A stretch of 64,000 bases of DNA from an archaeon (GTDB lineage Archaea; Aenigmatarchaeota; Aenigmatarchaeia; Aenigmatarchaeales; JACQIB01): assembly GCA_035291225.1 (NCBI GenBank), contig DATDSO010000010.1:11163-75162 (forward strand), read 5' to 3'. This document shows, piece after piece, positions 1 to 48,748 of the stretch (position 1 is the stretch's first letter; the number at the start of each line of letters is the position of its first letter). Position numbers and translations under genes: made by a program. The notes under the pieces were generated by a model. The model was not told the DNA's origin, made no database searches, and was given only the letters and a program-made list of their open reading frames with translations.

Positions 1-349
1 CTTTCCATTCAATGTCTTTTTTATCGAGTTCTGCGGGAGAGAAGGCGGAAATTCTTTGTTTTACTTTCTCTTCAAAAGCTGCTTTCGCCTGCTCAAAAGT
101 GTTCGTTTTTTCATCCATATATTTTTCAGATGTTCCATAATCATAAAGAGCGAGAGGGGTTTCAAATTTGGCAACAGAATCCAAAGACCTTTTCAAACTT
201 TCTGAAACTCCCTCCAGCTCGTAAAGTTTAACAGAGCCTGCAGCCACATCAACGTGCCTTGAATAGAAAATGCTTTTATCCATAACAAAAATTATTGTTA
301 TCATTATCATCATAAAAATTCCCAGAAAAAATGGTGCACTCCCTTTCAT
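1..349 (-). CDS. Prepilin-like protein (class III signal peptide), C-terminus beyond window edge
   Basis: Not in ORF track (runs off the edge). Minus-strand ATG at 347-349 overlaps the upstream stop by 1 nt, with a GGAGGTGA SD upstream. N-terminus MKG|SAPFFLGIFMMIMITIIFV is K-G followed by about 20 hydrophobic residues. Confidence 0.55.
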   Translation of the reverse strand, partial: MKGSAPFFLGIFMMIMITIIFVMDKSIFYSRHVDVAAGSVKLYELEGVSESLKRSLDSVAKFETPLALYDYGTSEKYMDEKTNTFEQAKAAFEEKVKQRISAFSPAELDKKDIEWK

Positions 350-879
350 TATCTCACCTCCCTCGAACTGCAGAAAATAAATTTGCCGGATTTTGCGTCA
401 GCGTAAACCAGATGGCTCACGCAATGCAGCTGTTTGTCTGGCCGTATGCCGGCGCGCAGATTAAAAATTTCTTTTCCTTCTGATTTAAATGTGGCTTTGT
501 ATTCTCCAATGCCAAAATCTTTTATAATTTCTTTTGCAACTTTTTGTATGTCATAGCTTTTTCCTTCAATGGCTAGAGAAGTTATTTTTGTATCAGTATC
601 GCCACTATTGGAGAAAACGAAATATGGGAGTATGTCCTTGAATGGAATTCCATGATGAGAATACTCTAAGATTGAATTCATCTCATTGCCGGCTGCAGGA
701 GTGTCGTAATAAACATCTCCATAGACAGTTCCTGTCATGTTTATATGCAAAAGGAAAATTACAATTGCTGAAACAAAAAGCATAAACAGAGTTGAAAACA
801 TTGACAGAACTGCCATCATTACATCTGACAAATATGTTATTGTCCCCTTTTTCCTTGAAAATTTATTTGACTTTGACAT
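349..879 (-). CDS. Prepilin-like membrane/secreted protein
   Basis: N-terminus ..SRKKG|TITYLSDVMMAVLSMFSTLFMLFVSAIVIFLL. Start overlaps the upstream gene by 17 nt; part of a tightly coupled operon. Confidence 0.6.
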   Translation of the reverse strand: MSKSNKFSRKKGTITYLSDVMMAVLSMFSTLFMLFVSAIVIFLLHINMTGTVYGDVYYDTPAAGNEMNSILEYSHHGIPFKDILPYFVFSNSGDTDTKITSLAIEGKSYDIQKVAKEIIKDFGIGEYKATFKSEGKEIFNLRAGIRPDKQLHCVSHLVYADAKSGKFIFCSSREVR

Positions 880-1279
880 TTAAAATCCCCGCCGCTGTTC
901 TATCTGAATATTTTATCAAAACTGGTAAAGCTCTCGAGAGCGTTGTGCCGCCTGAGAAATCTTTTCCTATTGAAATAACTTCTTGGCCGCCTCGCTCGGA
1001 AATTTTTGCGTAAAACTCTATCGGAGCATTGACGCAAAAATTTGCTTTTGCGGACTGAACTTTTGCTGCGTCTATAACTCCTTTCCTTACTTCTCCATAG
1101 ACAGTTTCTGCCAAGCATGGAGCTGCAGCAATTGCATGCGCCAGATCTACTGTCATCCTTATATTATCATAAACTCTTACCTGCCCCTGAAATGCTCCTG
1201 ACTGGAGAATCATCCCCAAAATTCCGGCAATCAAAAATCCCATTGTAAACATCTTCAAAATAAATTCTGCTATATCCAT
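863..1279 (-). CDS. Operon member with N-terminal hydrophobic helix (no clear K/R-G site)
   Basis: MDIAEFILKMFTMGFLIAGILGMIL.. Start overlaps the upstream stop by 1 nt; GAGGTGA SD. Confidence 0.55.
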   Translation of the reverse strand: MDIAEFILKMFTMGFLIAGILGMILQSGAFQGQVRVYDNIRMTVDLAHAIAAAPCLAETVYGEVRKGVIDAAKVQSAKANFCVNAPIEFYAKISERGGQEVISIGKDFSGGTTLSRALPVLIKYSDRTAAGILNVKVK

Positions 1280-1731
1280 TATCTCACCTCAAGCCCGAAA
1301 AATGTGCTGTTCTTAGTGATTTTTATTTTGCTCTTGCTTGCGCTTGTAAATGATTTTGTGGTCGGCAAGGGAGTTCTGCTGCATGTTATAGTGGGAGAAG
1401 GGTTTATTGACCGGTATTGGGTGTATCCGCCGCGTTCGATTGTTGTCCAGTCGCGCAATTTTTTCGCGGGTGGCACTGCCTGAACTGCATTCCCGACAAC
1501 ATTCAAATCAAATTGCGTTGGTTTTTCTATGATATATGTGAAGTCATAATCTTCAGTTCTGCAGCCAAAGCTGAAAGCCGAACTCAAAGATGCCTGAACA
1601 ACTGACGGAGATGTCAAAAGCATTCCGGCAACTGTGTCTGTTCCAAAAACTAAAGACCAGTAGATAACCATAAATATCAAAATAATTATGCCAATCGTTG
1701 TGACAACATCATAAACTATTGTTCCTTTCAT
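1279..1731 (-). CDS. Prepilin-like protein
   Basis: MKG|TIVYDVVTTIGIIILIFMVIYWSLVF. ATGA overlap with the upstream 740-aa gene; GGTGAGCGG SD. Confidence 0.65.
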   Translation of the reverse strand: MKGTIVYDVVTTIGIIILIFMVIYWSLVFGTDTVAGMLLTSPSVVQASLSSAFSFGCRTEDYDFTYIIEKPTQFDLNVVGNAVQAVPPAKKLRDWTTIERGGYTQYRSINPSPTITCSRTPLPTTKSFTSASKSKIKITKNSTFFGLEVR

Positions 1732-3950
1732 CCGCTCACCACAAAAGTTATGCTCGAATCTTTGGCAACAGAGATGCCGATTTTATCGCTGCCCGCAATT
1801 GGGAAATCTCCCTGATTTTTTTCTTTGCCAAACGTCGTTGCCCAAGTTTGCGTATCTGCATTCCATCTCTTCACATAATCACAATTTGCCACCAAACCAC
1901 AAAGTTTGGAAGCTTTTGTTGAATAGCTTTCGGGAACAATAAAAAAGTTGTATTTTCCTCCCGTAAGCTTGTATGGGGTTCCCGCGGAAGCTTGAACCGG
2001 AGCTTCTGTTGACGGATCTACTGAAATAGAAGAGTAATCAAGTTTGCATCTTCCGGTTGCGTCTGAAATTTTGATTTTATCAAAAGCAAATTTCTGGCCT
2101 GCTTGAGATTTCAATATTATAGAAACGCGCTCGGGAAAGGATTTCGCCGCGCGCTTGTCTATTTGCCTCCATGAACCTTCACCTGTCGCTATTTCTGTTT
2201 TTATTTCTGTGCTGCATGGCTGGCTGTCATCAGTATCGAGAACTCCTGCATAAATTTCAATTACTGTTGCTTCTTTCTGCTCGTTGAATCTGTATGTATG
2301 CGTTTGCAGGTTCGCGCAAATTCTTCCTGCGGCCAAGCCTTCGTCTGAAGTTTCGCATATACGATAATTCTCGGAACGCAGAATCGAGCATGAATTTGAA
2401 GTTGCTTCTTTTGAAATGAATCCCATGTACTTTCCAACAGTTGTCAGATTAAATGGCTGAGTGTCGGTCAGCCTTAATTCATTTCTTATTGGAGTAACGA
2501 TTTCTTCCGGTTCTACGCAATTTATTTTATCTATATCTTTTTCTGCCCCATAATTGTAAATCTCGCAGCAATCAACAAAAATTTCCTCTGCAGCGTGGCG
2601 CGTTTTTAGCGTCTTCATTTTTTCCGGAGTTAATTCTGTAAATGGTATTCCGGGCCACATCAGAGTTTCTGCGCAGGAAAATGCGCCTCTGCAAAGATCG
2701 CCTGCATCCAAACACGGCACGCCGTAAAGAGAAGATAATTTGTTCCAGCTTATTCCCTGAGAACCTGCAACTTTTTTCACAGCAGTTCTTCCAATAACTT
2801 CAGCGAGGAATTTTTTGCTTCCTGTGACTTTTACAGCTTCTTTTCCAATTTCTTTCGCAACATCGTGCTCAATAATTTGGCCGGTTTTTTGGTAAACTTT
2901 TCCGGCTGCGATTTCTCCGGCAGTTCTTGCGGTTTCTCTTCCGCCATATTTCCCTGTAACTTTTATTGCTTCCTTTTCCGCGTCTTTTGCTATCTGCTCA
3001 ATAACTTCTCTGCCTAATTTTGTTCCCAGTTTTTCCGCGGCGACTGTGGCTCCTTTGGCTGCGCCACGCTTTGCTGCGGCTTTTGACCCGAACGAAAGAA
3101 TATCTGTTGCAACATCAGCAGCAAAGCACAAGTCCTCTCCTGCATAGAGAGCAACCAAACCATTTAGCAAACCTTCATCGGCGTAGCAATAATTTGATGC
3201 GTCTGCGCCAGCTCTTGCTACGTTAGCTATTATCTCACTTCCGGATTTTTTAAAAGAAACTTTTGCATAGCATGGGGCAGCGAGATAGAATTTTGGATTT
3301 TCAAGTGAAAGCGGCGTAGAGGAGCGTTCCAATTTAATATCAACTATATTTTGCGGCAGTTTCAAAGTGAAATTTTGCTCAAGCCCGCGCACGTTCAAGC
3401 ACAAACCTTTTCCAGTTGTGCATCCTTCCTGCAAGTATTTTGTTCTGTAAAATTGCTTGAATCTTGTTAATGTTGGGCCAATATCCCACCATCTCTCTCC
3501 TATTGTTGAGCGCTCGAAAGGATATGTTTCAGACCACTTCTGCAATTTTGTTGCATCGAAGCCGTTGGAAGCTGCTGCTTCTGAAAAAACTACCGGCATC
3601 GAAAATCCGCCCCGCTCTCCTAATTTTGTTTCCTCAACTGGTTTTGTTTGGATTTTTTGGTAGTACAAAAGATATTGCGGAACCATCAAACCATAGTATG
3701 CTTGAATGTAGCCAACGCCAGTTAAGCTCCATTTGCTTTCCTGACAAAGTTTTACAACAGCATCCTTGCTGCAGCCCTGCTTGCCTTCGCCTGCTGCGCA
3801 CTCTATTGCAAGCTTAACTTCCTCCAGAGAAATTCTCGCCAAGTCGTCGCAAGAGCTGCGCGGAAACAAAACATAAAACATGAACACAGTAATTATGGCT
3901 ATTATCATTCCCACCATCAGTTTTAGAACTTCCTCGGAAACTCCTCGCAT
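1728..3950 (-). CDS. Giant prepilin-like protein, Cys-rich ectodomain (740 aa)
   Basis: MRG|VSEEVLKLMVGMIIAIITVFMFYVLF N-terminus. More than 30 Cys; central Ala/Lys/Gly-rich degenerate repeats (..AAKRGAAKGATVAAEKLGTKLGREVIEQIAKDAEKEAIKVTGKYGG..AKEIGKEAVKVTGSKK..). No family recognised. Confidence 0.7.
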   Translation of the reverse strand: MRGVSEEVLKLMVGMIIAIITVFMFYVLFPRSSCDDLARISLEEVKLAIECAAGEGKQGCSKDAVVKLCQESKWSLTGVGYIQAYYGLMVPQYLLYYQKIQTKPVEETKLGERGGFSMPVVFSEAAASNGFDATKLQKWSETYPFERSTIGERWWDIGPTLTRFKQFYRTKYLQEGCTTGKGLCLNVRGLEQNFTLKLPQNIVDIKLERSSTPLSLENPKFYLAAPCYAKVSFKKSGSEIIANVARAGADASNYCYADEGLLNGLVALYAGEDLCFAADVATDILSFGSKAAAKRGAAKGATVAAEKLGTKLGREVIEQIAKDAEKEAIKVTGKYGGRETARTAGEIAAGKVYQKTGQIIEHDVAKEIGKEAVKVTGSKKFLAEVIGRTAVKKVAGSQGISWNKLSSLYGVPCLDAGDLCRGAFSCAETLMWPGIPFTELTPEKMKTLKTRHAAEEIFVDCCEIYNYGAEKDIDKINCVEPEEIVTPIRNELRLTDTQPFNLTTVGKYMGFISKEATSNSCSILRSENYRICETSDEGLAAGRICANLQTHTYRFNEQKEATVIEIYAGVLDTDDSQPCSTEIKTEIATGEGSWRQIDKRAAKSFPERVSIILKSQAGQKFAFDKIKISDATGRCKLDYSSISVDPSTEAPVQASAGTPYKLTGGKYNFFIVPESYSTKASKLCGLVANCDYVKRWNADTQTWATTFGKEKNQGDFPIAGSDKIGISVAKDSSITFVVSG

Positions 3951-3979
3951 GTATTTTATTCAAGAAGCTTATTTAAAAA

Positions 3980-4357
3980 TTACTCAGCTTTCGGGCAGTC
4001 GCAGCCAAGCTTTCCTTTAACATCATCTTCTGTGACACTTGCCCCGACTTGCTTGTTATTTGCTATTCTATAGAGGTCTTTTATCTTAATATCACCTGTT
4101 GAAGAATATTGCTTCGGCACGCCGCCGCATTTGTAATCTGTTATAGAAACAGTCCTTCCCTTATCATCAGTTGTGCTAGATTGAGAGCAGAGATTTGGGA
4201 TTGGACTGATAAAGGGAGTGCAGCAAGATTGCAAAAGTCCTCTCGCCGCCGGAGCTTCGAGCTGGGCTTGTGCCGTTGGCAAAAATCCTATAGCTGCGAA
4301 AAATAAAATCAGCGCCCCAACAACAGCAACCAAAACCATAATAGGCTTTTCTACCAT
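3980..4357 (-). CDS. Small secreted Cys-rich protein
   Basis: Sec-like signal MVEKPIMVLVAVVGALILFFAAIGFLPTAQA|QLE; 6 Cys; lies inside the operon. Confidence 0.55.
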   Translation of the reverse strand: MVEKPIMVLVAVVGALILFFAAIGFLPTAQAQLEAPAARGLLQSCCTPFISPIPNLCSQSSTTDDKGRTVSITDYKCGGVPKQYSSTGDIKIKDLYRIANNKQVGASVTEDDVKGKLGCDCPKAE

Positions 4358-4389
4358 AAGAAACTTTCTCGGCTGCGTTTATAAACTTT

Positions 4390-4557
4390 TCAAGAAGTTT
4401 TCCCAGTGAGGGATGAGAAGAGTCCTTTTATCAGATCCAAAATAGGATTCGAAAGCCCTTGGCCTGTCTGCGCAATAGAAATTCCTATTAACATGAGAAT
4501 AACTATTGCTACAATTGCCACGACGAACATGATTATTCTGTCATCAACACCTTTCAT
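4390..4557 (-). CDS. Mini prepilin-like protein (55 aa)
   Basis: Internal start of ORF 4390..4620 chosen: AGAGGTGAT SD, then MKG|VDDRIIMFVVAIVAIVILMLIGISIA. ATGA overlap with the upstream gene. Confidence 0.55.
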   Translation of the reverse strand: MKGVDDRIIMFVVAIVAIVILMLIGISIAQTGQGLSNPILDLIKGLFSSLTGKTS

Positions 4558-4748
4558 TCTATCACCTCTGAAGTTTTTTGCTGCTGGCCGGATGAGCATT
4601 TGCCAAGATTTCCCATGCATTCAAGTATTTTTTCAACAAGTGTTCCGCCGGTTTCAAGGGGCTGTGTAACTATCTTTATGCCAACTGCCAGAACCATCAC
4701 AGACAAAAATACAACCACAAGAAAAACAATTGTGCTCATGCCTTTCAT
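4554..4748 (-). CDS. Mini prepilin-like protein (64 aa)
   Basis: Internal start of ORF 4554..4991: MKG|MSTIVFLVVVFLSVMVLAVGIKIV. ATGA overlap with 4745..4978. Confidence 0.55.
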   Translation of the reverse strand: MKGMSTIVFLVVVFLSVMVLAVGIKIVTQPLETGGTLVEKILECMGNLGKCSSGQQQKTSEVIE

Positions 4749-4978
4749 GGAAATTTCACCGGAAACATTTTTTTGAAATGATTTGAAATTATTATTGCAA
4801 GCAAAAGAGAGAAAATGTAAACTGTTTCCAGACTGCTGTAAGAGCCTTCTGTCGGTTTCGGCCCCTTCTTGCTTGCAAGCAAAACAAAAAGTATTATTGC
4901 AACTACAAGTCCGAAAACTACCATTGCGAAGACCTGTATTGAAAATTCGCTGTCGCCTTTCAAAAATTTTCTTTTCAT
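4745..4978 (-). CDS. Mini prepilin-like protein (77 aa)
   Basis: MKRKFLKG|DSEFSIQVFAMVVFGLVVAIILFVLL. 1-nt overlap with the upstream gene. Confidence 0.55.
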   Translation of the reverse strand: MKRKFLKGDSEFSIQVFAMVVFGLVVAIILFVLLASKKGPKPTEGSYSSLETVYIFSLLLAIIISNHFKKMFPVKFP

Positions 4979-5181
4979 TATTTGCCACCAAAAATTGTTG
5001 ATAAAATATTGTTTACCCAGCTTTCAGAGCCGGTTCCGCTAACCTGCCCCAAACTTTGTTGATACAAATAAAATAGAATCATCAAAACTATAAGTATCCC
5101 GACAAGGAATGCCGCTTCTGAAGGAAATTGCTCAAAAACACTGCCTTTGGATTTTTTCATATTTTTCATAAAAATCATCAT
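4978..5181 (-). CDS. Mini prepilin-like protein (67 aa)
   Basis: ..NMKKSKG|SVFEQFPSEAAFLVGILIVLMILFYLY. ATGA overlap with the 778-aa gene. Confidence 0.55.
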   Translation of the reverse strand: MMIFMKNMKKSKGSVFEQFPSEAAFLVGILIVLMILFYLYQQSLGQVSGTGSESWVNNILSTIFGGK

Positions 5182-7514
5182 GTGAATGGTATTGCATAGT
5201 TTACTGGATATATATTATTATTTTCATTTGTTTCTTCTGTTGTTCCTGTTGAATCAACTCTAACATCTGCGCGGTATAATCCGTTTGGATGTGAATACTG
5301 GGGGCTTACAACTGTGTGGAATGATTTTCCTGCTTCTATTTTTGTATAATCTCCGCTCGCTATCGATAACTTTTCTCCTGTGTTAGAGTTAACGATTGAA
5401 TATTCATATTTTCCTGCGTTCGCTGATGCGGTTCCGAGATTATTTATTGTGATATCTATTTTTATTTTATTTGAGACATCACCTGCAATAACATCAGCCA
5501 CTGGCGCAAGGTCGGCGAGATTGGCCCGAGCTGTTGTTGTAGTTGAACTTGTCGCGGCACCGCGGCCTGCAACAACTGCAGATGAAGTTGTTGTGGTTGT
5601 TTTTGGTTTTGTTGTAGTTGTCGCAGCTGAAGCTTCTCCCAAATCTACAATTATGATTGAATAATCTTTCCAGAATCTCGTGTTCATCACACTACCTACA
5701 GGTATGCCCCAAGCAAGATTACAGTCGCCATAGCTCCTGCTTGCTATTCTATTGCAGGAATCTGTCTGTATTAAATCAAGTTTTGGCCCATTGTTATTTT
5801 GAATCGGTTCCCAACACCACCCGCAACCTATAGTCCCCCAGCCGCACCCATCTGTTTTTTCTGACTTGCCTTCTATTTTTGTCAAAAATCTATTTACAAT
5901 AATATTATATTTATGATTTTTCAGGAATTTTCCTTGGTCTAAGTTATGTTTTATGTCTATTTCAAATAATTTTTTATTATTGCTTGGACAGATGTCACCC
6001 AAATCTATGGGGTTGTAATTCTTTCCGTCGCCGATTTCTCCTGACTCTGTGAGTGTGTTGTAATAAAGTTTCTTAAAATTAATAGGACCTTCGATATCTG
6101 TGTCATAGCAATCTTGGCCAAAGCAGGTTTCTATATTTTCCTGCCAATTTTCCTGCCCAACTTTTGCGTCGAAATAAGTTCTGCCAGTACATACAGTTTC
6201 CCCACCTTGGACGTTGGTGCAACTTTTCGAAACGCCAATTTTATAGTCATTGCCTTTCGGCTTTGAAGAAGAGTCCTTGAAATTTTTTATAAATGTTGGA
6301 AAGTCAAAATCGTTTGCTGCAGTGAATGTTATGTCTAATTTTCTCCTTAGGTCGGCGTATAGAGGAGCGGCAGGAGAATTTCTGTTCGCGTTGCTGCGTG
6401 AAAAGCGGTTTGAATCTTGGCCGTTGCCGGCAAAAACAAAAGCAAGCCTGTCTGGAATCTGCTCTGTTGTTATAATTCCCAAGTCAAGTTTCTCGGGAAC
6501 TTTTTTTATTTCATAAACATATTTTTTATTATTTTTATTCCAATAGAGAATCCATCTATAAGTTGGTGAGCACGTTCCGCTGCCGCAATCTGGTAGAAAT
6601 TTATCCGCGCCCAAATTCGAATCATCTGTTGCATATTGCTGCTCTATGAAATGTTTTGTTCCATCATATTTTTTTTCGTAACCTGAAAATACAAGAGATG
6701 TCGCTGGCAGGGCCTGAAGTCCTGGTATTGAGATGGGCAAGGCAGGAAACTGGCTGTAGCCAGTTATTTTATCATCATTTCCACTCTCACACATCTTACA
6801 GGAAGTGTCATAACTATCAAGACCGCCGGCTGATCTTCCCGGAGCGCTTTTGCCGCAATCCTTGTTCCCAAAGCTGACGAGCTGGCCTTTTCCGGGAGAA
6901 ATTAATTTTTCTCCTTTTGTGCAGAAAGGCTTATCGTGTGTTGGGTTTCTTGATAATCCTCTAAGAAAAGAATTTATGCACGCTTCATCAAATCGCTGGG
7001 GGCATTGTGAAAGAAAACGCACAAATAAAGGCTGGCCGCTTTGGCCGACTAAATCATAGCAACCTTTCTCCTGAATTATTTTCTTTTCCTGTTCAGGCGT
7101 TAAATCTTTATCCTCATCGTATTTTCCTTTCTGAGAATTATAATTTATTTTAAACAAAGCAGAATCTATATACAGCAAATCTGTTATACCATAATTATCC
7201 AATTTTATTCCGTGCTCACTTTCTCCATTTGCTATGAAATCATCTCGGATTGTTTTGGAAAGAGAGCATCCTACAATACCGGCTGTTAATGGAATTTCTC
7301 CCGGAGCTATATTCAACATTTCCAAAACATTTTTTGACTCCCCTTCTGGTATTTCTTCAATGGGCAGTGTTAATGTCGGAATCTTCCCTTCGATATCACT
7401 GAGCTGGCCTCCCAGATCAACAGAAATTCCCAAAAATTTCAGAAGTCCGGCTGCCAAAAATATCAATGCAACAACTATCAGGAGAAACACTACCATCTCT
7501 TTTGTCGAAACCAT
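5178..7514 (-). CDS. Large Cys-rich surface protein with Thr-linker and C-terminal CARDB-like domain (778 aa); first gene of operon
   Basis: N-terminal anchor MVSTKEMVVFLLIVVALIFLAAGLL; about 35 Cys; linker ATTTTKPKTTTTTSS..SSTTTTA. C-terminus DLAPV..ITINNLGTASA..VRVDSTGTTEETNENNN matches the CARDB pattern (DL..N.G......vD..n.v.E.nE.NN). Confidence 0.7.
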   Translation of the reverse strand: MVSTKEMVVFLLIVVALIFLAAGLLKFLGISVDLGGQLSDIEGKIPTLTLPIEEIPEGESKNVLEMLNIAPGEIPLTAGIVGCSLSKTIRDDFIANGESEHGIKLDNYGITDLLYIDSALFKINYNSQKGKYDEDKDLTPEQEKKIIQEKGCYDLVGQSGQPLFVRFLSQCPQRFDEACINSFLRGLSRNPTHDKPFCTKGEKLISPGKGQLVSFGNKDCGKSAPGRSAGGLDSYDTSCKMCESGNDDKITGYSQFPALPISIPGLQALPATSLVFSGYEKKYDGTKHFIEQQYATDDSNLGADKFLPDCGSGTCSPTYRWILYWNKNNKKYVYEIKKVPEKLDLGIITTEQIPDRLAFVFAGNGQDSNRFSRSNANRNSPAAPLYADLRRKLDITFTAANDFDFPTFIKNFKDSSSKPKGNDYKIGVSKSCTNVQGGETVCTGRTYFDAKVGQENWQENIETCFGQDCYDTDIEGPINFKKLYYNTLTESGEIGDGKNYNPIDLGDICPSNNKKLFEIDIKHNLDQGKFLKNHKYNIIVNRFLTKIEGKSEKTDGCGWGTIGCGWCWEPIQNNNGPKLDLIQTDSCNRIASRSYGDCNLAWGIPVGSVMNTRFWKDYSIIIVDLGEASAATTTTKPKTTTTTSSAVVAGRGAATSSTTTTARANLADLAPVADVIAGDVSNKIKIDITINNLGTASANAGKYEYSIVNSNTGEKLSIASGDYTKIEAGKSFHTVVSPQYSHPNGLYRADVRVDSTGTTEETNENNNIYPVNYAIPFT

Positions 7515-7539
7515 AATACCGCCAATATTCTCTTTTCCC

Positions 7540-7551
7540 TATTTTTAAAAC
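7540..7551 (-). promoter_or_regulatory. TATA box of the prepilin-like operon
   Basis: Minus-strand GTTTTAAAAAT about 31 nt upstream of ATG 7514. Only TATA-like element seen for the 11-gene block. Confidence 0.45.
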
Positions 7552-7614
7552 TTCACAAAGCAATATAAATTGAAAATTACAATGTCTTTTATGCCGATTG
7601 AAGGGGTGAAAAAA

Positions 7615-10414: not shown

Positions 10415-10534
10415 TACCCCAAAAGAGTATAGATAGCAATCTATAAATAGATGTGGGTTTCCTCTGGAAAGCTTCATAAACTACAAAAGCAATTATGCAT
10501 CAGACGATGCATTTTTGCATAAGGCGATATTTTT

Positions 10535-11215
10535 ATGCCACACGCTGAAACCATAATTATTTCCCTCGGCGGCTCGCTGGTTGTTCCGGAGGAAATTGAT
10601 TTGGATTTTCTGAAAAAATTCCGCGAGCTTGTTTTGCGCCACAGCAAAAACAAAAAATTTGTTTTGATGGTGGGGGGCGGGAAAACCGCAAGGAACTACC
10701 AAAAAGCAGCAGGGGAATTTTCTGCCAGCAATTTTGATTCTGACATGATTGGAATTATGGCAACAAGGCTGAACGCAGAATTGGTGCGTGCAATTTTCAG
10801 CAAGGAAGCATACAAAAAAATAATTTACAACCCGACTGAAAAAATAAAATTCTCAGAGAAAATTTTAGTGGCAGCTGGCTGGGAGCCCGGCTGCTCAACT
10901 GACTTTGATGCGGTTTTAATCGCGAAAAATTTTGGGGCAAAAACAGTAATTAATTTATCCAACATTGATTATGTCTATGACAAAAATCCAAAAGAATTTC
11001 CAGACGCGGCTCCGATTGAAAAAATTTCCTGGAAAGATTACAGAAAAATGTTTAGCGGCACATGGACTCCGGGATTCAACAGCCCGTTTGACCCGGTTGC
11101 CGCAAAGGAAGCGCAGAAGCTAAAGCTGAAAGTTATTATTGCCAACGGAAAGAATTTGGAAAATCTTGAGAGGGTTTTGAGAGTGGAGGGGTTTGTTGGA
11201 ACGGAAATATTCTAA
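10535..11215 (+). CDS. pyrH: UMP kinase, archaeal type
   Basis: IIISLGGSLVVP.., ..MVGGGKTARNY.., ..AAGWEPGCSTDFDAVLIA..; 226 aa, typical archaeal PyrH. Confidence 0.85.
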   Translation: MPHAETIIISLGGSLVVPEEIDLDFLKKFRELVLRHSKNKKFVLMVGGGKTARNYQKAAGEFSASNFDSDMIGIMATRLNAELVRAIFSKEAYKKIIYNPTEKIKFSEKILVAAGWEPGCSTDFDAVLIAKNFGAKTVINLSNIDYVYDKNPKEFPDAAPIEKISWKDYRKMFSGTWTPGFNSPFDPVAAKEAQKLKLKVIIANGKNLENLERVLRVEGFVGTEIF

Positions 11216-11877
11216 ACAACAACTTCCGCCGCGCCCCGCATAGAAAGCAAGCCAGCAACTTCTGGCGGAACTTCTGCTGTTTGCCCATTGGCGAACGGCC
11301 CATAGTAATTCAAGTCCGCGCCTACGAATTGCGGCAAATCCATAAGCAATTTTATTTTTCTAAAATCGGGTTTTGGAATTTCTTTTGGAATCTCCGGAGC
11401 CGCAGGCGGCTGCGCGTCTAATTTTTCAGAAGCGATTTCGGAAATTTCTCTATTGTGTGTTGCAGAGATATTTTCATTCGAGCCATTTTTTTCTGATGTT
11501 TCAATTTTTGGGGCTTCCATAATTTGGTTTGAATTTTTTACTTCCTCAACCAATTTCCTTGCCTCGGAAATTTTTTCTTCAACAAATTTGTCATAGCTCC
11601 ACATTTGCTGCTGAATTTCGTTTTTGAAATTCTTCAAGCTTAAAATCATAATATCAAAAAACTTCTGCTCTTCTAAAGTCAGCCCATCCGGCGGAATATT
11701 TCCGCGGACAGTGTGCAGAGCAGCAAGAACAATTTTTTTCTCGCGCCGATTCACGAGCTCTTCAAGAATTTTTTTCGCGCTCTCAACTTCAAGCATGGAC
11801 TGCGTGTCCCTTCTGGAGCTTTTGTGTTCAATCCATTGGCGCACTGCTGAAAAAAATCCCGCAGGAAGCTTCTGCAA
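11212..11877 (-). CDS. GINS subunit (Gins51-like)
   Basis: LQKLPAGFFSAVRQWI.., ..NRREKKIVLAAL...LTLEEQKFF.. (A domain) and C-terminal ..MDLPQFVGADLNYYGPFANGQTAEVPPEVAGLLSMRGAAEVV (B domain). TTG start; homology seems to continue upstream (see findings). Confidence 0.65.
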   Translation of the reverse strand: MQKLPAGFFSAVRQWIEHKSSRRDTQSMLEVESAKKILEELVNRREKKIVLAALHTVRGNIPPDGLTLEEQKFFDIMILSLKNFKNEIQQQMWSYDKFVEEKISEARKLVEEVKNSNQIMEAPKIETSEKNGSNENISATHNREISEIASEKLDAQPPAAPEIPKEIPKPDFRKIKLLMDLPQFVGADLNYYGPFANGQTAEVPPEVAGLLSMRGAAEVVV

Positions 11878-12045
11878 TTTCTCCTCTTTCTCAGCTCGGT
11901 GCGCGGCGCGAATTGTTTCATAGGTTATTATTTCTGCAATAAAAATCGCCTCATGATTTTTATGGACTGCAGAAGGCTTTAAGCTTTCTGCTGGACCATA
12001 GAAGGTCGAAAATAATTCGAACTAAAAGTTTATAAAACTATTAAT

Positions 12046-15000
12046 TTATTGTGGTTGAGGCGTTGCAGCAGGCTGAGTTGTAGAAGCCTTTGCGGAAATC
12101 TTTTTGAAGACAAAGAATGCTGCGCCTGCTAAAATAACTAAAACAACTGCGCCGACTGCAATAAATTCTGTCCCACCAGAAGACGGCAAAGTTGTTATTG
12201 TTTCTGTGGTGGAGATTGTTGACAAAGGCGGGCGTGTTGTTGTTAATTCTATGGTTGTAACTGTAGAAGGCAGCATTTCACCGGTAATAAGTTTAGCCTG
12301 CACTTCAAAAGTTTTTGTAGCAGTTGTTATCGTATTGCCATCGACATCTGTTACAATACCATACCACGAAACAGTTCCAGTGTAGCCATTGTCGTTGGAC
12401 CATGTATATGAAGCTGAACTTTCGTTTCCGCTAAATTTTTGTGTTGATCTTAAAACAAAATCACCGCTCTCTTTAACAAAAAATTGGGCTGTATCGAGCT
12501 CTATATTATCTTTCGCGTTTACTGTCAGTTTGTTATTTCCATCAAAAGTTATGGATTCCGACTGCTCCGTTTGTCCAGTGTAAGATGGTTTTTCTGTGTC
12601 TTTGTTTATGTTAACTTCAGGATCAACGATTCCCTCATTGCCATAAACATCAACAGCAGTCATATACCAAGTTAACTTGCTTAGCCCTTCCTTTCTAGGA
12701 ACTCTATAATCAAATTCTATCCAACCTTCTTTAAAGCCGGCCTCGAATGTTTTTGTTTCAATAAAAGTTGGACCTTCTCCCAAATCCACATAAAGCTTCG
12801 CCTCTTTGATGTCGGACTCATCTTTCCAGTATTTTGAAAATCTCATTGTCTGACCATAGACTGCTTGCTTCGGTGTTCTGTCTTCTGTCCATTGCGGAGG
12901 ATTTTCAATTTTGAATCTTGTAATATTAGATTTTGTTTCTAAACCAACAGCATCTTTTGCTGATACGCTTATTTCAACATCACTATTCTCAGCTAGATTT
13001 GGACTCGGAATATAATCATAATTAATACAATTTCTTATGCCTGCAGTATTCTTCAGAGAGTCTTGCTGTTTTGCAGTGTCTGCTGGCTGCGTTGTTACAG
13101 TTGTTGTAGTTCCCGCAACTGCGGTTGTTCCCGGAACTGTTGTGGTCGTTGTGCTGCCACTCGGCTGTGCTGTGTTGTCATTAGTTTGTATTTGGGCTTC
13201 ATTTACATTAAAAGCTCCACTTATTGATCCCGAAGCAGAAGCTGAAGAAGCTTGCTGAGCAACACCAACCGAAGATGCGCTTCCAGCAGTTGTTGTGGTT
13301 GTGCTAGTCGAAGAAGATGGACTCGGCAGCGCATTTTCTTTTACGCTAATTTTATACGATGCCGGATTTATGTTCCAGTCTTTCATGCACGCCTTGAATC
13401 GTATACTTTCCTTCAGAACTGTGCTTACTTTTGTTGCATTTATTCTTATGCTAGTGATTTCAGGAGGCTCGATATCTTTCACCCTAAATAATTTTTGAGA
13501 AGCCTTTGCCACATTCCCAACTTTATCATAGGCTGTAATATTCCAAACCACTGCAGAGCCGGGCATTATTCTATCATGATAGCCAGAGGAGAAATCTCCG
13601 CCGCCTATACCGCCGGTTCTTGAACCAGATCCCTCGACAACGTCTCTAAAAATTCTGTCTCTTATGATATTATTTACACTCAACAGTTTCCTTCCTACTA
13701 TCATTAAACTCTCATCATCATTTGCAGAGCTTGGTTGCTGCTCTCTTGGAGTCGGTATAGAAATTTCAAAATCTACTGTTGTTTGCGTTTTCACTCCTTT
13801 CTGATTGGAATATCTGTCGCCTACTATCACAGTAGAATTCAAATCCAATATAACTGTTGAAAGTCCGTTGCATCTGCTTTGTGGGTCTTTTGTGGTGTCA
13901 GCTTTATCCTGCCAAACTGTTCTTAATTTTATTTTTGTTCCGGGAATTAGTTCTGGCAAATCACCGCTCAGCGGATTTCCACTGGAGTCTAAAATCTGCT
14001 GTGAAATAAGCTGCGGCGGGTTTGCATCATAAATTCCGTTTGGATCTTGGCAGAGTGGATCAAGAGTAAATGTTGATTCAGTGCTTTTTTTCTCGTTGCC
14101 AGCTTTATCTTTAGCAAGAAGATACCATTTAACAATATATTGCTGATTTAGAGGGCTTGCAACATATGCCAGATAATCATTCTTGTCTAGTGTTATACTT
14201 CTTTTATCAGAAGTCTGTGTGTAAAAATATGTGACCTTTTTGTTCACAACTTCTTTTCCATTGAGAAAAACTGAAACAGACTCCAATCCAGTTTCCTGAT
14301 CGCCGGCATTAAACATTATTGTCGCTCGCTGGTTTGCTGAAAGGGCTGTAGGCGAGTCTGCAACCGAAAGTGTCGGCGCAACATCATCTAAGATAACAAG
14401 TTGGCCATAATCTTCATCTGCCGCTGTGTTCAAATCTGGCGCTGAAACAGAGTTGCTTTCTGTATCTTTCGCGCGGGCAAACCAAGTTATTGCTGAGCCT
14501 TTTTTAGCGTCGGTTGGGATTTTTAGAAGCCAGCTTAATTCTTTTGTGTCATCGTTAACGGTTTCCGTATGAGAGTCATGAACCCAGCTTCCATCTGTTT
14601 TTTGATAATCCCACTCAAAAACAATTTCAGAAAGCCTCACGTTATCCCTGCAGCTTACTGTCAGTTGCTTGTTTTCACCCTGCTTTATCGCTACAGAATT
14701 TTTATTTTTGAGTTCGCAAGTTGGTGACGTGACATCTTTCACCATGAAATAATCTGTGTAAAAATTAGATTTCTGATCTGCTGCATCTTTTGTTTCAGCA
14801 TAGAATCTGAATTTTTTTCCTTCTTGCGTTGTGCCTGCGCTCAGCGCCGCTTGTCTGCAGCTGCTATCGCAATCTATGTAATCGTTTACATATCCGTCTA
14901 TCTGACCCCCTGTTATCTGAACTGGCTTGCCCCCTTCTGCTTCTATGTAAAAGTTTGTTATTTTCAAATTTCCTTTCTCGTCTCCTTTTTCGGTGAAGTC

Positions 15001-17568
15001 GTCTGTGCATCTTGCTTGAAGAGACTTAACGCTATTTGGATTGATTTTCACTATTGGATCTTCAGTTCCTATATCAAGTTCGCATTGGGGAGGCTGGGAA
15101 TCTTTTGGCGGAGGTGCTTCAACTATTTTTATTTCTTTCAGTGTAGCAGGCTCTGCTGTTTCTGAGTCTTTCGAAACTTTCCCTTCAGCTGTTCCAGCAA
15201 TGCCCCTTCCCATAATGTCTACTTTAATATTATTTCCCACATCAGATTTTGTTGGCTGGCATGAAAGTCTTAACTTGAAGATTGAAGCGGCCAGCAGAGG
15301 GTTTGGATTGTCTATAAGCATTTTGCATTGCGAGGCTCTCATTCCTTGCAGCTTTATTCCAAGAGCCCCTGAAACGACATCATACTCTGTCGGCGTTATT
15401 GTGGAGCCTCTCTGCGCAACACTATCAAAAATAATTTTTTCAGATAAACTTTCTTTTGCAACAGTTTCTTTTGAAACAATTTTCAGCTGTTCCTTTGTGA
15501 CTGGAATTCCGGCTCCCCGCAAAATTCGCACAGCATTGTCGAGCTTGGCGTCTTCTGTTTCAATTGCTCTTTTGGCAAGTTCTTCTGTTATCAGACCATG
15601 ACTTGTAGCAACTTTTACAATTGTTTTGAGCTGGTCTGGAGTGAGAGAAATTCTTTGAGTTGCAAGGTCTTTGCTGACTTTATCAAAAACACTTTTGAAA
15701 CCATCGACTCCTTTAAGGGCAAGTTCCCTTGTTGCAACATCGGAAGCTATCATGGATTTCGCAATAACTTCCAAATTTTCCCTGCTAACTTGAACTCCTT
15801 TATTATAAAGCTCTTTTGAAACAGAATCTAATTTATCTTTTGAATTTTCCAAACCTTTATTAGCGAGATTTGTTGTTGTCACGCCGGCATTTACCAAAGC
15901 GCTCCTTGTAGTTTCTAGTTGCTGGCGTGTCAGTGTAATTTGTTTTTCCGCCAAATCTTTAGTAACAGCCTCTGCTGTATTTATTTCTTGTTCGTTTGTT
16001 AATATACCGACATTTAACAAGCCTGTTATAATCAATTGTTTTGTTATTGTATCAAGTTGCTCCGGTGTCAGAGATATCTGGGCTTTCAAAGAATTAGAAA
16101 CCTGCACAAGCTTGTCGCGCGAACTTTCAAGGCCTTTTTGCGCGAGCTGATATTTTGTAACCTCAGCGGCAACAAGCGTTTTTATTATAACTTCTGTCTG
16201 CACGCGGGTGTAAGTTGCGCCGCCGACAATTTTATTTTTAGAATCATTATAAACCTGATTAATCTTGTCGCTGGAATATTCCACTCCTTTGATTGCGAGT
16301 TCTCTTGTAGTCACGCCAGCTTCAGTAAGCATCTTATAAGCAATCTGTAGCTGTTGATATGTTGTCGGAACTTTTACTCCCTGCAAAGTTTTCACGGCCG
16401 CATCAAGTTTGTTTTTTTCATTTTCTACTCCCTTCCACGCAAGGTCGCGAGCTGTCAAGCCCGAATCCGAAAGGGTTTTCGCAATTTTATCGAGAGTTTG
16501 TGTGCTTGTCTGCACCCCTTTTGAACTAAGATCTTTTGATACGCCGATAAAATCATTGAACTTTGTCTGCGCAGTTCTCGCAATTTCAGAAGTCTTTGTG
16601 GAAAAGAAATCTAAATTAATTGGCATTGTCGGACCAGCTATCTTTGGCAGCCAAGAAAAAGAAAGAAAATTTTGCTTTTGCTGAGGTGGTGGAGAAGTTT
16701 TCTTTGCAGCCGGCGGTGGTGTTGTTGGTTTTTCTCTGCCAACCGCAGAATTTTTCATGCAGAGGCCAAAGCTGTTTAATTTAGAGTTCTGCCAAAAACA
16801 AGTCGCAGCATCGCTCGGGCATCTATATCCGCTGGCTCCGCAGGCATCTCCATAATTATCCTTATTTTTTGAGGATGAAACAAGAACAGACAAGTCTGGG
16901 AGTTGTTTGATTTCAACTTCCATTTTCACCTGACCAAAACGAACGAATGGATTATGATAAATTTCTTCGTTTTGAGCGCAGCCTGCTGCTATACAATAAA
17001 CTCCCTCTTCTGTCGGAAGCTCTATAAAATCTGTTTCAGCTTTTAATCCCTGATTATTTGTGTTTTCACAATCGACTTCCCCGGTTGTTATACCACCCGC
17101 ATTGATGCATCCGTATAAAGGAGTGCATATTGTGCCATGTGTTTTACAATCTCTGCCGGCGTAATTTGAAACAACCTCTGCATCTTTGTAATTTTTTGCA
17201 TTACATGGACCTTTAACAATAGAAACGCCTGCTGAAAGTTGGATCGTTCCCCTAGAAGTTGCTGGAAGGTCCAGAGCCCTGTCCCTGCAGTTGATTTTTT
17301 CCGCAGATATTTTAACCTTCTCTCCGGCGTTAAAAAGCCTTATTTTATCTGTTACATCATATTTTCGCGGACCTTCTGTGGCAACCTGTAGCTTCTGCCC
17401 ACCCGAAGCAGTGACAGTCAGATAGCCGCTCGCAGCGCTGTACTGCGCTTGAGAAACCGATTCCGCCTGCGGCGTGTTCGTATTATATCCCGCGATGTAT
17501 AAGGTTACAAGAAAAATAAATAATGTTGCGATAATCGGAAGTGAATTATTTCTTTCTTTTTTAGACAT
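12046..17568 (-). CDS. Giant surface protein (1840 aa): Cys-rich head, helical tandem repeats, about 7 Ig-like modules, Thr-linkers, C-terminal TM anchor
   Basis: N-terminal anchor ..SLPIIATLFIFLVTLYIAGY. Modules start with D..pP(t/q) motifs (DVTSPTCEL, DDVAPTLSV, DIEPPEITS, ENPPQWT, DTEKPSYT). C-terminus ..GGTEFIAVGAVVLVILAGAAFFVFKK plus a TTQPAATPQPQ tail. Confidence 0.8.
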   Translation of the reverse strand: MSKKERNNSLPIIATLFIFLVTLYIAGYNTNTPQAESVSQAQYSAASGYLTVTASGGQKLQVATEGPRKYDVTDKIRLFNAGEKVKISAEKINCRDRALDLPATSRGTIQLSAGVSIVKGPCNAKNYKDAEVVSNYAGRDCKTHGTICTPLYGCINAGGITTGEVDCENTNNQGLKAETDFIELPTEEGVYCIAAGCAQNEEIYHNPFVRFGQVKMEVEIKQLPDLSVLVSSSKNKDNYGDACGASGYRCPSDAATCFWQNSKLNSFGLCMKNSAVGREKPTTPPPAAKKTSPPPQQKQNFLSFSWLPKIAGPTMPINLDFFSTKTSEIARTAQTKFNDFIGVSKDLSSKGVQTSTQTLDKIAKTLSDSGLTARDLAWKGVENEKNKLDAAVKTLQGVKVPTTYQQLQIAYKMLTEAGVTTRELAIKGVEYSSDKINQVYNDSKNKIVGGATYTRVQTEVIIKTLVAAEVTKYQLAQKGLESSRDKLVQVSNSLKAQISLTPEQLDTITKQLIITGLLNVGILTNEQEINTAEAVTKDLAEKQITLTRQQLETTRSALVNAGVTTTNLANKGLENSKDKLDSVSKELYNKGVQVSRENLEVIAKSMIASDVATRELALKGVDGFKSVFDKVSKDLATQRISLTPDQLKTIVKVATSHGLITEELAKRAIETEDAKLDNAVRILRGAGIPVTKEQLKIVSKETVAKESLSEKIIFDSVAQRGSTITPTEYDVVSGALGIKLQGMRASQCKMLIDNPNPLLAASIFKLRLSCQPTKSDVGNNIKVDIMGRGIAGTAEGKVSKDSETAEPATLKEIKIVEAPPPKDSQPPQCELDIGTEDPIVKINPNSVKSLQARCTDDFTEKGDEKGNLKITNFYIEAEGGKPVQITGGQIDGYVNDYIDCDSSCRQAALSAGTTQEGKKFRFYAETKDAADQKSNFYTDYFMVKDVTSPTCELKNKNSVAIKQGENKQLTVSCRDNVRLSEIVFEWDYQKTDGSWVHDSHTETVNDDTKELSWLLKIPTDAKKGSAITWFARAKDTESNSVSAPDLNTAADEDYGQLVILDDVAPTLSVADSPTALSANQRATIMFNAGDQETGLESVSVFLNGKEVVNKKVTYFYTQTSDKRSITLDKNDYLAYVASPLNQQYIVKWYLLAKDKAGNEKKSTESTFTLDPLCQDPNGIYDANPPQLISQQILDSSGNPLSGDLPELIPGTKIKLRTVWQDKADTTKDPQSRCNGLSTVILDLNSTVIVGDRYSNQKGVKTQTTVDFEISIPTPREQQPSSANDDESLMIVGRKLLSVNNIIRDRIFRDVVEGSGSRTGGIGGGDFSSGYHDRIMPGSAVVWNITAYDKVGNVAKASQKLFRVKDIEPPEITSIRINATKVSTVLKESIRFKACMKDWNINPASYKISVKENALPSPSSSTSTTTTTAGSASSVGVAQQASSASASGSISGAFNVNEAQIQTNDNTAQPSGSTTTTTVPGTTAVAGTTTTVTTQPADTAKQQDSLKNTAGIRNCINYDYIPSPNLAENSDVEISVSAKDAVGLETKSNITRFKIENPPQWTEDRTPKQAVYGQTMRFSKYWKDESDIKEAKLYVDLGEGPTFIETKTFEAGFKEGWIEFDYRVPRKEGLSKLTWYMTAVDVYGNEGIVDPEVNINKDTEKPSYTGQTEQSESITFDGNNKLTVNAKDNIELDTAQFFVKESGDFVLRSTQKFSGNESSASYTWSNDNGYTGTVSWYGIVTDVDGNTITTATKTFEVQAKLITGEMLPSTVTTIELTTTRPPLSTISTTETITTLPSSGGTEFIAVGAVVLVILAGAAFFVFKKISAKASTTQPAATPQPQ
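15411..16551 (-). repeat. About 6 tandem 60-65-aa helical repeats inside the giant surface protein
   Basis: Recurrent unit ..VSKDL..KGVQ.S...L..IAK.L...GvT.reLA.KGvE.s.DKL.. (for example LTARDLAWKGVENEKNKLD, TTRELAIKGVEYSSDKIN, TKYQLAQKGLESSRDKLV, TTTNLANKGLENSKDKLD, ATRELALKGVDGFKSVFD). Confidence 0.6.
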
Positions 17569-18620: not shown

Positions 18621-18655
18621 TTTAGTTTTTTGAATTTTACGCTATTTCACTAAGT

Positions 18656-18663
18656 TTTATAAA
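18656..18663 (+). promoter_or_regulatory. TATA box (TTTATAAA) of CARDB lipoprotein 2
   Basis: Box centre is 26.5 nt from ATG 18686. Context GTTTTATAAATAGGTTTT. Confidence 0.55.
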
Positions 18664-42802: not shown

Positions 42803-42976
42803 GGGCCCATAGCTCAGTCTGGTAGAGCACTCGGCTCTTTGTTCCAAAGAGCAACACGAGCCTTTTTAGCTGTCGGCAAAATCTGAAAGATTTTGCGAGC
42901 TCCCAAAAAAGCTGAAAGCTTTTTGGCGATGAGTAAAACCGAGGGGTCGCGGGTTCGAATCCCGTTGGGCCCACCA
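42803..42976 (+). tRNA. tRNA-Lys(CUU) with about 97-nt anticodon-loop intron; CCA encoded
   Basis: GGGCCCA-TA-GCTC-AGTCTGGTA-GAGC-A-CTCGG-CT-CTT..[about 42840-42936]..AA-CCGAG-GGGTC-GCGGG-TTCGAAT-CCCGT-TGGGCCC-A-CCA. TATA 42771-42778. The exact intron junction is ambiguous. Confidence 0.8.
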
Positions 42977-48724: not shown

Positions 48725-48748
48725 TTTATGAAAAATTGCCACAGCACT

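Follow-up and report, generated by a model that had tools for sequence, protein, structure and literature searches.

A pilin-like gene array with two giant cysteine-rich members in an Aenigmatarchaeota genome: probable subunit module of a DPANN-typical type IV filament system

Background

Archaeal type IV pilus loci combine genes for an ATPase and a platform protein with those for a major pilin, several minor pilins and large Cys-rich signal-peptide proteins, the latter being adhesins or minor pilins (Makarova et al. 2016, PMC4858521). For the DPANN archaea, the account that accompanies Fig. 2A of Makarova, Wolf & Koonin (2019, PMC6393860) infers that uncharacterised signal-peptide proteins encoded beside FlaI/TadC are diverse, fast-evolving pilins; in the 'dark-matter' pilin loci described there, numerous uncharacterised signal-peptide genes come after those for a FlaI-type ATPase and a TadC-type platform protein. 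About 29,500 archaeal type IV filament (TFF) loci, including those of DPANN, were classified in a 2026 preprint (bioRxiv 10.64898/2026.04.22.720090). Here we analyze a stretch of 64,000 nucleotides (the window) from an archaeon of the Aenigmatarchaeota (GenBank assembly GCA_035291225.1, contig DATDSO010000010.1, forward-strand positions 11,163 to 75,162), one end of which is occupied by 11 consecutive minus-strand genes that run from an ATG at 7514 to the window edge at position 1. These genes are named P1 to P11 in the order of their transcription, and P12 designates an off-window gene beyond P11. We consider it quite likely that the cluster constitutes the module for pilins, minor pilins and adhesins in a DPANN-typical type IV filament (type IV pilus-like) system, because of the synteny with motor genes in relatives, the presence of an ATPase and a platform protein in the same genome, the conserved [K/R]G at the N-termini and the structural model of P10.

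The arrangement described for the DPANN loci in PMC6393860 is also seen in four of the loci recovered here (L007, L009, L013 and L029). The window differs from the loci described there in that its pilin module lies apart from the motor, and in that the families P1 and P7 to P12 have been delineated with a conserved order and N-terminal motifs. A preliminary description of the window had read the array as a filament with large adhesin subunits and, at the same time, as a candidate undescribed organelle. The first half of this reading is supported, in so far as synteny, the genome's own ATPase and platform and the conserved [K/R]G point to pilin-like subunits of a TFF system that include large adhesin-like members. 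The second half does not, given that pilins had already been inferred in DPANN loci (Fig. 2A account, PMC6393860), and large Cys-rich adhesins or minor pilins described in other archaeal ones (PMC4858521). The cluster is a poorly annotated representative of an established type IV filament design, and no new kind of machine.

Results

A conserved leader motif at the N-termini

Class III leaders are short, basic and end in a Gly (or Ala) that directly precedes a hydrophobic helix of about 20 residues. A rule-based scan recovered this feature in the cluster, with an N-terminal [K/R]G and a hydrophobic helix within 0–8 residues of it in 8 of the 11 products, as against 0 of the 73 other non-overlapping open reading frames (ORFs) of the window, among which two internal chance matches were seen. 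The stretch after the Gly often opens with a few polar or acidic residues (for example VSEEV, VDDRI, DSEFS and SVFEQ) and is not purely hydrophobic. The motif noted in the preliminary description is thus borne out for eight members, and its picture of an immediately hydrophobic stretch has to be amended.

The leader is retained in orthologs from genomes with a GC content of 0.41–0.59. In P7 the Gly is found in all 15 orthologs and is preceded by K or R in 13 of them; [K/R]G is present in 11 of 14 orthologs of P8, in 12 of 13 of P10 (the remaining one having KA), and in all 13 orthologs of P11 as well as all 13 of P12. On reading the sequences we noted no Ala-x-Ala type site after the helix in any product except P6. 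Furthermore, many of the predicted mature N-termini carry an Asp or Glu within their first 7 residues, a feature that recalls Glu5 of bacterial pilins.

Linkage to an ATPase and a platform protein

Gene order was compared through iterated local searches across 21 loci. In relatives, the array with the P7 ortholog begins with a T2SSE ATPase (PF00437, 747 residues) and a platform protein of about 715 residues, continues with about 4 small genes, a gene for a P1-like protein, 3–5 further small genes and a P6-like gene, and is completed by P7 to P12 and Alba. The ATPase gene, the platform gene and the orthologous array are co-directional in L007, L009, L013, L015, L017, L018 and L020, and also in L014 as far as its contig, which opens within the platform gene, allows; the order is rearranged in L019 and L027, with the genes still adjacent in L019. 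Around the P7 homologs of two relatives, the P1-like protein has 450–620 residues and is accompanied by about ten small single-pass proteins. The gene order after the ATPase and platform is kept across lineages whose GC content ranges from 30% to 59%.

The preliminary description had made its filament dependent on an assembly ATPase elsewhere in the genome, and an ortholog was indeed found at locus L010 in the form of P0042 (HLE07560.1), a protein of 745 residues that is 66% identical to the ATPase of L007. P0042 bears the same collection tags as the P7 protein of the window, with 19 contigs of which the longest has 873,710 bp, and L010 and the window are close in composition (GC content 0.42 vs 0.41; tetranucleotide r=0.986). 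L010 also holds the platform ortholog and two divergently transcribed coiled-coil genes. Given that the ATPase and platform genes are at this separate locus, the pilin module and the motor are separated in this lineage. The earlier statement that the window contains no ATPase, platform or peptidase gene is upheld by gene annotation, which places none in the window or within 10 kb past position 1. In L012, the closest relative, housekeeping genes also lie upstream of the P1 gene.

The ATPase matches Pfam T2SSE at E=2.6e-14 and has a long N-terminal extension; its nearest solved relatives are the A. fulgidus GspE (2OAP, 1.2e-32), FlaI and CpaF. The subfamily of about 745 residues to which it belongs is common in metagenome-assembled genomes (MAGs) named Aenigmatarchaeota, Micrarchaeota and Nanoarchaeota. 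Within the platform family (about 714 residues), 6 of 8 members match T2SSF in Pfam, the best at E=1.8e-8; the copy from the window's own genome reaches only E=0.19, and the profile of the family has no match among PDB sequences.

Several other features of the motor loci were observed. Two coiled-coil proteins, of about 250 and 110–130 residues, are always encoded divergently from the pilus ATPase (L007 307-1391, L010 8746-9944, L029 8751-9929 and L030 8656-9934, all on the minus strand); they have weak, sub-threshold Pfam matches only, and may be cytoplasmic partners that assist or regulate the motor. Some ATPase orthologs reach about 1250 residues by virtue of an intein with a LAGLIDADG homing endonuclease (PF14890, PF14528), as in L013 122-3898, L029 10001-13732 and the proteins P0023, P0073, P0080, P0090, P0109, P0112, P0126, P0131 and P0133. 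No gene intervenes between the ATPase and platform genes of L029 and of the Aenigmatarchaeota relatives examined; L030 has an additional same-strand gene for 146 residues at this place, and in L010 the two genes are separated by an opposite-strand gene for 358 residues without family assignment (12264-13340, minus strand). In L029 (5849-8655, plus strand) and L030 (4906-8650, plus strand), 5–7 consecutive genes for proteins of 120–200 residues without a Pfam family are bounded by a DUF357 gene on one side and the ATPase locus on the other. Most of these proteins have hydrophobic N-terminal regions and several look like paralogs of each other; they have no counterpart near the ATPase of the window's genome.

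The small pilin-like proteins

The sequence beyond position 1 was obtained from L001, which is identical to the window across 10,879 nucleotides by exact-match look-up, the window being part of a 129-kb metagenome contig. It contains the full P11 gene at 10531-11508, encoding 325 residues, and the P12 gene at 11553-11879 (plus strand), that is, about 700–1000 nucleotides past position 1 of the window. P12 has 108 residues, starts with MAKG↓MELPVNVLVIVAIAV (the arrow, here and below, follows the Gly of the motif) and possesses 4 conserved Cys.

P5, P6 and P12 are paralogs with a common 'KG↓(I/V)ELP(V/I)N' start, which differ in the size of the head: P5 has none, whereas that of P6 spans about 60 and that of P12 about 70 residues, with 4 conserved Cys in the heads of both P6 and P12. 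P5 itself falls in a family of pilins of about 50 residues that start with 'KG↓(V/I)ELP' and are devoid of a globular head. In the lineage of the window P6 has lost the KG (MVEKPIMVLV...AQA), its orthologs elsewhere starting with MKG↓AISLP, and judging from its sequence it may be cut by an ordinary signal peptidase at AQA instead; in a phmmer search it matched L007 9622-9909 at 9.7e-7. P12 has the most conserved N-terminus of the whole locus and is duplicated in L013, L015 and L020. It is probably the major pilin.

Wherever the locus of a relative continues beyond the P7 gene, a P8 ortholog is found at the equivalent position. P9 begins with M-D/E-x-A-E-F directly at the helix and is usually leaderless, with two orthologs that start with MKG↓LEPAEF. 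In the alignment of P10 orthologs K11, G12 and the run T15-Y16-L17-S18-D19 are invariant. An AlphaFold2 (AF2) model of P10, computed with 7 sequences in the alignment, attained a mean pLDDT of 79.4 and a pTM of 0.62. It displays one uninterrupted helix from residue 11 to 72 (62 residues), which extends from the predicted cleavage site, and then a small α/β head. This modeled layout fits the 'lollipop' shape of pilins.

The giant Cys-rich proteins P1 and P7

P1 (778 residues) contains 20 Cys and P7 (740 residues) 22. P1 comprises an N-terminal transmembrane helix, a conserved Cys-rich core of about 560 residues, a Thr-rich linker and a C-terminal CARDB domain (PF07705), the last at residues 677-769 (nucleotides ~5208-5486) with E=1.1e-7 and 32.5 bits against a Pfam gathering cut-off of 22.7. 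The CARDB-like tail, the Thr linker and the Cys-rich nature of both giants, as first described, are therefore well founded. Orthologs of P1, with 531–678 residues, stand at the equivalent position in relatives; those of L013, L015 and L020 start with MKG or MRG, and the lineage of the window lacks the G. Only the window and L022 have the stalk and the CARDB tail, which thus represent a lineage-specific addition.

From the N- to the C-terminus P7 consists of the leader MRG↓VSEEV, a transmembrane helix, a conserved Cys-rich N-domain, a variable helical insert rich in Lys, Ala and Glu, and a beta-sandwich region. G3 is nearly invariant in its alignment, which also has 20 invariant Cys columns. 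The AF2 model of P7 is of low confidence, with a mean pLDDT of 62 and values of 70–90 in the C-terminal half. When this model was used in Foldseek searches, the beta-sandwich of the better-predicted C-terminal third weakly resembled the CUB, discoidin, CBM32 and CBM22 folds (E ~1e-4 to 1e-3), a hint that the C-terminal region might be a ligand-binding head.

Among 5.8 billion proteins P7 has 13 close homologs, the named one being from an Aenigmatarchaeota MAG. Scans with the P7 alignment returned 4 loci in GTDB genomes and 13 in JGI metagenomes, and the 3 GTDB records with a phylum name are all Aenigmatarchaeota. Given that only these 4 and 13 loci were returned, the close P7 family is narrow. 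An exhaustive profile search with the same alignment recovered 166 clusters. Second-tier relatives have 800–1000 residues, come from Nanoarchaeota and Aenigmatarchaeota MAGs, and have in common the N-terminal region and an 'NPxFxLxxPC...SNYC' block. One of them, P0158, is encoded in locus L029 of a Nanoarchaeota MAG, and this locus follows the same overall plan behind an intein-containing ATPase. We found no match of the large proteins to a known non-filament family, the kind of match to which the preliminary description would have yielded.

Signals for translation and transcription

GGTGA, GAGGTGA or GGAGGTGA is found upstream of 6 internal genes (those encoding products of 77, 64, 55, 150, 138 and 325 residues), in agreement with the internal Shine-Dalgarno-type sites reported earlier. 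The start of P4 was placed with the help of such a site: the mechanical ORF 4554-4991 is over-extended from a TTG, and GGTGA precedes the start adopted here, which yields a 4-nucleotide overlap with P3.

Motifs resembling a transcription factor B recognition element and TATA box (BRE/TATA-like, AAGYTTTWTAWA type) lie 20–30 nucleotides upstream of the starts of P1, P6 and P7, that is, at all sites of the window's cluster where genes do not overlap, and these three promoter-like motifs are conserved in relatives. The element 'gcttttta(a/t)' is kept before the P7 orthologs of L012, L013, L015, L016 and L020, and the P7 transcript is likely to be leaderless. A fourth BRE/TATA-like box precedes the off-window P12. 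Since promoter-like motifs are found at P1, P6, P7 and the off-window P12, the array probably comprises three or four transcription units, the first genes of which are leaderless or near-leaderless. The view of one operon served by one TATA box accordingly gives way to one with three promoter-like elements in the window.

The pattern AAGTTT(T/A)(A/T)(A/T)AAA recurs in the window at 7542-7553 (minus), 12026-12037 (plus), 18652-18663 (plus) and 48748-48759 (minus). The first copy is the one before the start of P1, and the copy at 18652-18663 sits 23 nucleotides before the ATG at 18686. The pattern looks like the general BRE+TATA consensus of the organism; the count of 4 is not above chance for so loose a pattern, and the position relative to start codons is the sole argument. 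A scan for sigma-70 promoters and intrinsic terminators gave counts at the level of shuffled sequence, these models being uninformative for an archaeon.

Layout of the array and its neighborhood

The coordinates of the genes and promoter-like elements are collected in Table 1. The junctions from P1 to P11 are, in order, overlaps of 4, 1, 4 and 4 nucleotides, gaps of 32 and 29 nucleotides, and overlaps of 4, 1, 17 and 1 nucleotides. The count of eleven genes given at the outset is correct for the minus strand of the window, with 8 overlapping junctions of 1–17 nucleotides each, and falls short for the array, which continues off-window with the rest of the eleventh gene and the 108-residue P12.

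Table 1. Genes and promoter-like elements of the array, in window coordinates
Feature	Coordinates	Strand	Description
P1	5178..7514	-	778 aa; predicted large surface adhesin subunit
P2	4978..5181	-	67 aa; mini-pilin-like; KSKG↓SVFEQ, then transmembrane helix; ortholog in L012
P3	4745..4978	-	77 aa; mini-pilin-like; FLKG↓DSEFS, then transmembrane helix; orthologs in L012 and L022
P4	4554..4748	-	64 aa; mini-pilin-like; MKG↓MSTIV; gene calls of L001 and L002
P5	4390..4557	-	55 aa; mini-pilin-like; MKG↓VDDRI; GAGGTGAT upstream
P6	3980..4357	-	125 aa, 6 Cys; own promoter-like box
P7	1728..3950	-	740 aa, 22 Cys; predicted giant pilin-like adhesin or tip subunit
P8	1279..1731	-	150 aa; minor-pilin-like; MKG↓TIVYD
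P9	863..1279	-	138 aa; pilin-like, leaderless
P10	349..879	-	176 aa; minor-pilin-like; RKKG↓TITYLSD
P11	1..349	-	pilin-like, MKG↓SAPFF; codons 1-116 of a 325-aa protein; runs off the window
BRE/TATA-like element before P1	7542..7553	-	20–30 nt from the ATG
BRE/TATA-like element aagtttataaa before P6	4378..4388	-	ends 20 nt from the ATG; kept before the L012 and L016 orthologs
TATA-like element tttttaaat before P7	3970..3978	-	about 20 nt from the ATG

The flanks of the cluster are housekeeping genes, with nitroreductase, S27e and L44e on one side and Alba on the other. Beyond P11 the off-window order is P12, Alba (L001 11936-12283) and an Exo_endo_phos gene. We observed that Alba directly follows the pilin array in all Aenigmatarchaeota loci that reach that far (L001, L007, L009, L013, L014, L015, L017, L018, L020 and L024), and that this linkage is kept despite the widely differing GC contents of these lineages; both a functional link and a mere conserved neighborhood are possible.

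The remainder of the window is archaeal housekeeping sequence, including L44e, S27e, PCNA, primase, Mre11/Rad50/HerA/NurA, the signal recognition particle (SRP) RNA and similar genes. Rfam places the archaeal SRP RNA at 40768-41038 (plus strand) and a tRNA spanning 171 nucleotides at 42803-42973 (plus strand), in which an intron of about 100 nucleotides is presumed; ARAGORN finds no tRNA in the window. At 12046-17568 (minus strand) lies an ORF of 1840 residues with no Pfam family on record, and beside it are genes for two CARDB proteins of 307 and 404 residues (17697-18620 and 18686-19900, both plus strand). The large ORF and this CARDB pair are candidates for further surface proteins of the same organism.

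Discussion

Weighing of alternative explanations

Several results count against assigning the cluster to a filament. Pfam and NCBIfam searches with the ten complete cluster proteins of the window and selected proteins of relatives matched only CARDB; in these databases no pilin model, including Class_IIIsignal, Pilin_N and Arch_flagellin, matched any member, and the Pfam class III signal model gave no match at E<=1 among the cluster proteins scanned. Foldseek with the P10 model against PDB retrieved no solved pilin, its best hits being chance ribosomal-protein matches (best E=0.027), and the profile of the P12/P6 family against PDB had as its best match a type IV pilin at a non-significant E=0.36. 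In the window genome P1, P6 and P9 are without the [K/R]G motif, and the pilin genes lie apart from those for the ATPase and the platform. Finally, no prepilin peptidase (Peptidase_A24; PibD, FlaK or EppA type) was seen in the window, the flanks of L001-L006, L010, L029 or L030, using precomputed Pfam annotation and a GxGD regular-expression and transmembrane scan over about 120 kb of this genome and three ATPase loci. Products without a match to any pilin family, encoded apart from the ATPase, with an AQA site of the signal-peptidase type in the window's P6 and a plain N-terminal transmembrane helix in P1, would also be expected of ordinary N-terminally anchored or Sec-secreted surface proteins, for instance S-layer-associated ones, that merely lie beside a secretion ATPase in some genomes. 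However, this is hard to reconcile with a gene order after the ATPase and platform that is conserved across 30% to 59% GC, with the conservation of the Gly directly before the helix and the enrichment of the motif (8/11 vs 0/73), and with the 62-residue helix of the P10 model, which begins at precisely that Gly; we regard such an explanation as improbable. A still more remote one is that a virus or mobile element has integrated here, with genes for membrane and receptor-binding proteins among which the many small single-pass membrane proteins and the large Cys-rich proteins without a family might be counted. The cluster is flanked by housekeeping genes (nitroreductase, S27e and L44e; Alba), is followed by Alba in every relative locus reaching that far, equals the rest of the window in GC content, and has no integrase, capsid or terminase annotated in it or within 10 kb. 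We rejected this origin on the strength of the flanking genes and base composition.

If the products are indeed pilin-like, the same machinery could instead build a short pseudopilus or a bindosome-like assembly that displays P1 and P7 on the cell surface or drives uptake or secretion (of DNA or nutrients) through the envelope. The ratio of about 11–17 minor-type pilin-like genes per locus to 1–2 copies of the candidate major pilin P12 speaks for this, as does a weak match of the ATPase to the NCBIfam model of BasE, the bindosome ATPase (1.7e-18, far below the cut-off). The Sulfolobus bindosome offers known cases of large non-filament proteins with class III leaders (bioRxiv 10.64898/2026.04.22.720090), and the Aenigmatarchaeota, being without nucleotide and amino-acid synthesis, must import these compounds (PMC8407114). 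However, there are no substrate-binding-protein or ABC-transporter domains in or adjoining the cluster and no ComEC-like channel gene nearby, and the headless pilins of about 50 residues and the well-conserved 108-residue pilin with its own promoter resemble shaft subunits. We take such an assembly to be unlikely. The database names 'FlaI' and 'FlaJ' of linked genes in Aenigmatarchaeota MAGs might furthermore suggest an archaellum, that is, a motility locus. In NCBIfam the ATPase is matched best by the FlaI model (1.3e-42), its source annotations include 'archaeal flagellar protein FlaI', and FlaG, FlaI and FlaJ homologs have been reported in Aenigmarchaeota (PMC8407114). Yet the FlaI match attains 146 bits where the curated cut-off demands 550, and the ATPase has 745 residues with its long N-terminal extension as opposed to the 513-residue chains of solved FlaI. 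The cluster proteins scanned include no archaellin-domain protein, and none of the loci has FlaH, FlaF/G or FlaX/CDE in its annotation. An archaellum is thus scarcely credible, and we rejected this identity because the defining genes (archaellins, FlaH, FlaF/G and FlaX or FlaC/D/E) are missing from the annotation of the cluster and the ATPase loci.

A proposed mechanism

For the type IV filament system, the sequence features, gene linkage and P10 model lead us to infer the following course of processing and assembly, with tentative positions for the subunits and a role in attachment. A prepilin peptidase would cut after the Gly of the class III-type leader (M-x0-10-[K/R]-G), leaving the hydrophobic helix, often with an acidic residue among the first 7. 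The FlaI/GspE/CpaF-type ATPase (745 residues) and the T2SSF platform protein of 714 residues would then extract the subunits from the membrane and polymerize them via their N-terminal helices. By analogy with the bacterial minor pilins plus PilY1 and with GspH-K, the P7-P8-P9-P10-P11 block may form a priming or tip complex, with the disulfide-rich 740-residue P7 as its exposed ligand-binding head. The shaft of the filament would be made of P12, of headless paralogs of about 50 residues such as P5, or of both. P1 could be a second large subunit, in which a CARDB adhesion domain on a Thr-rich stalk was acquired in this lineage. The system would probably serve to attach the cell to a surface or a host, in keeping with the reduced and host-dependent way of life that has been reported for DPANN.

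One may go further and speculate that the DPANN locus, with its N-terminally extended ATPase, its single large platform protein, its pair of divergently encoded coiled-coil proteins and its approximately 15 pilin-like genes, among them those of the giant disulfide-rich families P1 and P7, builds a composite host-contact organelle and not a simple adhesive pilus. A variety of pilin-like subunits would make up a specialized tip or pseudopilus that recognizes and perhaps breaches the host envelope, with the fast-evolving heads of P7 and P1 and their swapped modules (CARDB) setting the host range. We consider this extended scenario doubtful.

Significance

DPANN archaea are ultra-small and mostly host-dependent, and the manner of their attachment to hosts is largely unexplained. 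Their pilus subunits slip past standard annotation, as illustrated by CARDB being the sole Pfam/NCBIfam match in this cluster. Moreover, a pilin module that lies far from the motor genes would for that reason be missed by locus-based detection tools. In one groundwater study, DPANN were taken to have no type IV pilus components (bioRxiv 10.1101/2020.05.14.094862). What stands out in the present cluster is the unusually large pilin repertoire, the two giant pilin-like proteins, the leaderless P9, the swapped-in CARDB and the separation from the motor genes. The conserved families P1, P5/P6/P12 and P7 to P11, delineated here together with a predicted N-terminal processing motif and with the linkage of the families to one particular pair of ATPase and platform protein, offer targets for metaproteomics, cryo-electron tomography and studies of host range.

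Comparison with known filament systems

The Epd pilus locus of Methanococcus maripaludis ('system 1' of bioRxiv 10.64898/2026.04.22.720090; clade 1 of PMC4858521) is a precedent, being likewise a multi-gene locus (11 genes) with one ATPase and several minor pilins. The likeness extends to a very short headless major pilin and to large class III proteins with adhesin-like or galactose-binding domains. However, the Epd locus has two platform genes, a dedicated peptidase (EppA) within the locus and DUF361/QxSxE pilins, whereas here there is one platform gene, for about 700 residues, and no linked peptidase. Unlike in Epd, the cluster proteins scanned have no Pfam class III signal match at E<=1, and the ATPase has a long N-terminal extension. 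With a single platform gene per locus and no peptidase in the locus, the cluster departs from Epd/TFF system 1 in these features.

In the bacterial priming or tip complexes (PilV/W/X/FimU with PilY1; GspH/I/J/K), too, a very large subunit is encoded together with a conserved set of four or five small pilin-like proteins, and the role proposed is that of starting the filament and presenting an adhesin at the tip. We detected no sequence or fold similarity to them, and P7 carries a pilin-like N-terminus that PilY1 lacks. To our knowledge, archaea have no secretin. In the Sulfolobus bindosome (BasEF and sugar-binding proteins), large class III proteins that are not of pilin size are also served by a TFF ATPase/platform pair encoded elsewhere. 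The cluster described here differs from it in having neither solute-binding domains nor linkage to an ABC transporter, and in that its genes are grouped as a pilin array. The modular pilins PilB and PilC of Streptococcus sanguinis (PMC8179133, PMC9934059) bear vWA or lectin modules in place of the CARDB or CBM-like ones seen here. Although the sequences are unrelated and the organisms belong to different domains of life, the joining of a pilin N-terminus to bulky adhesion modules follows the same logic in P1 and P7.

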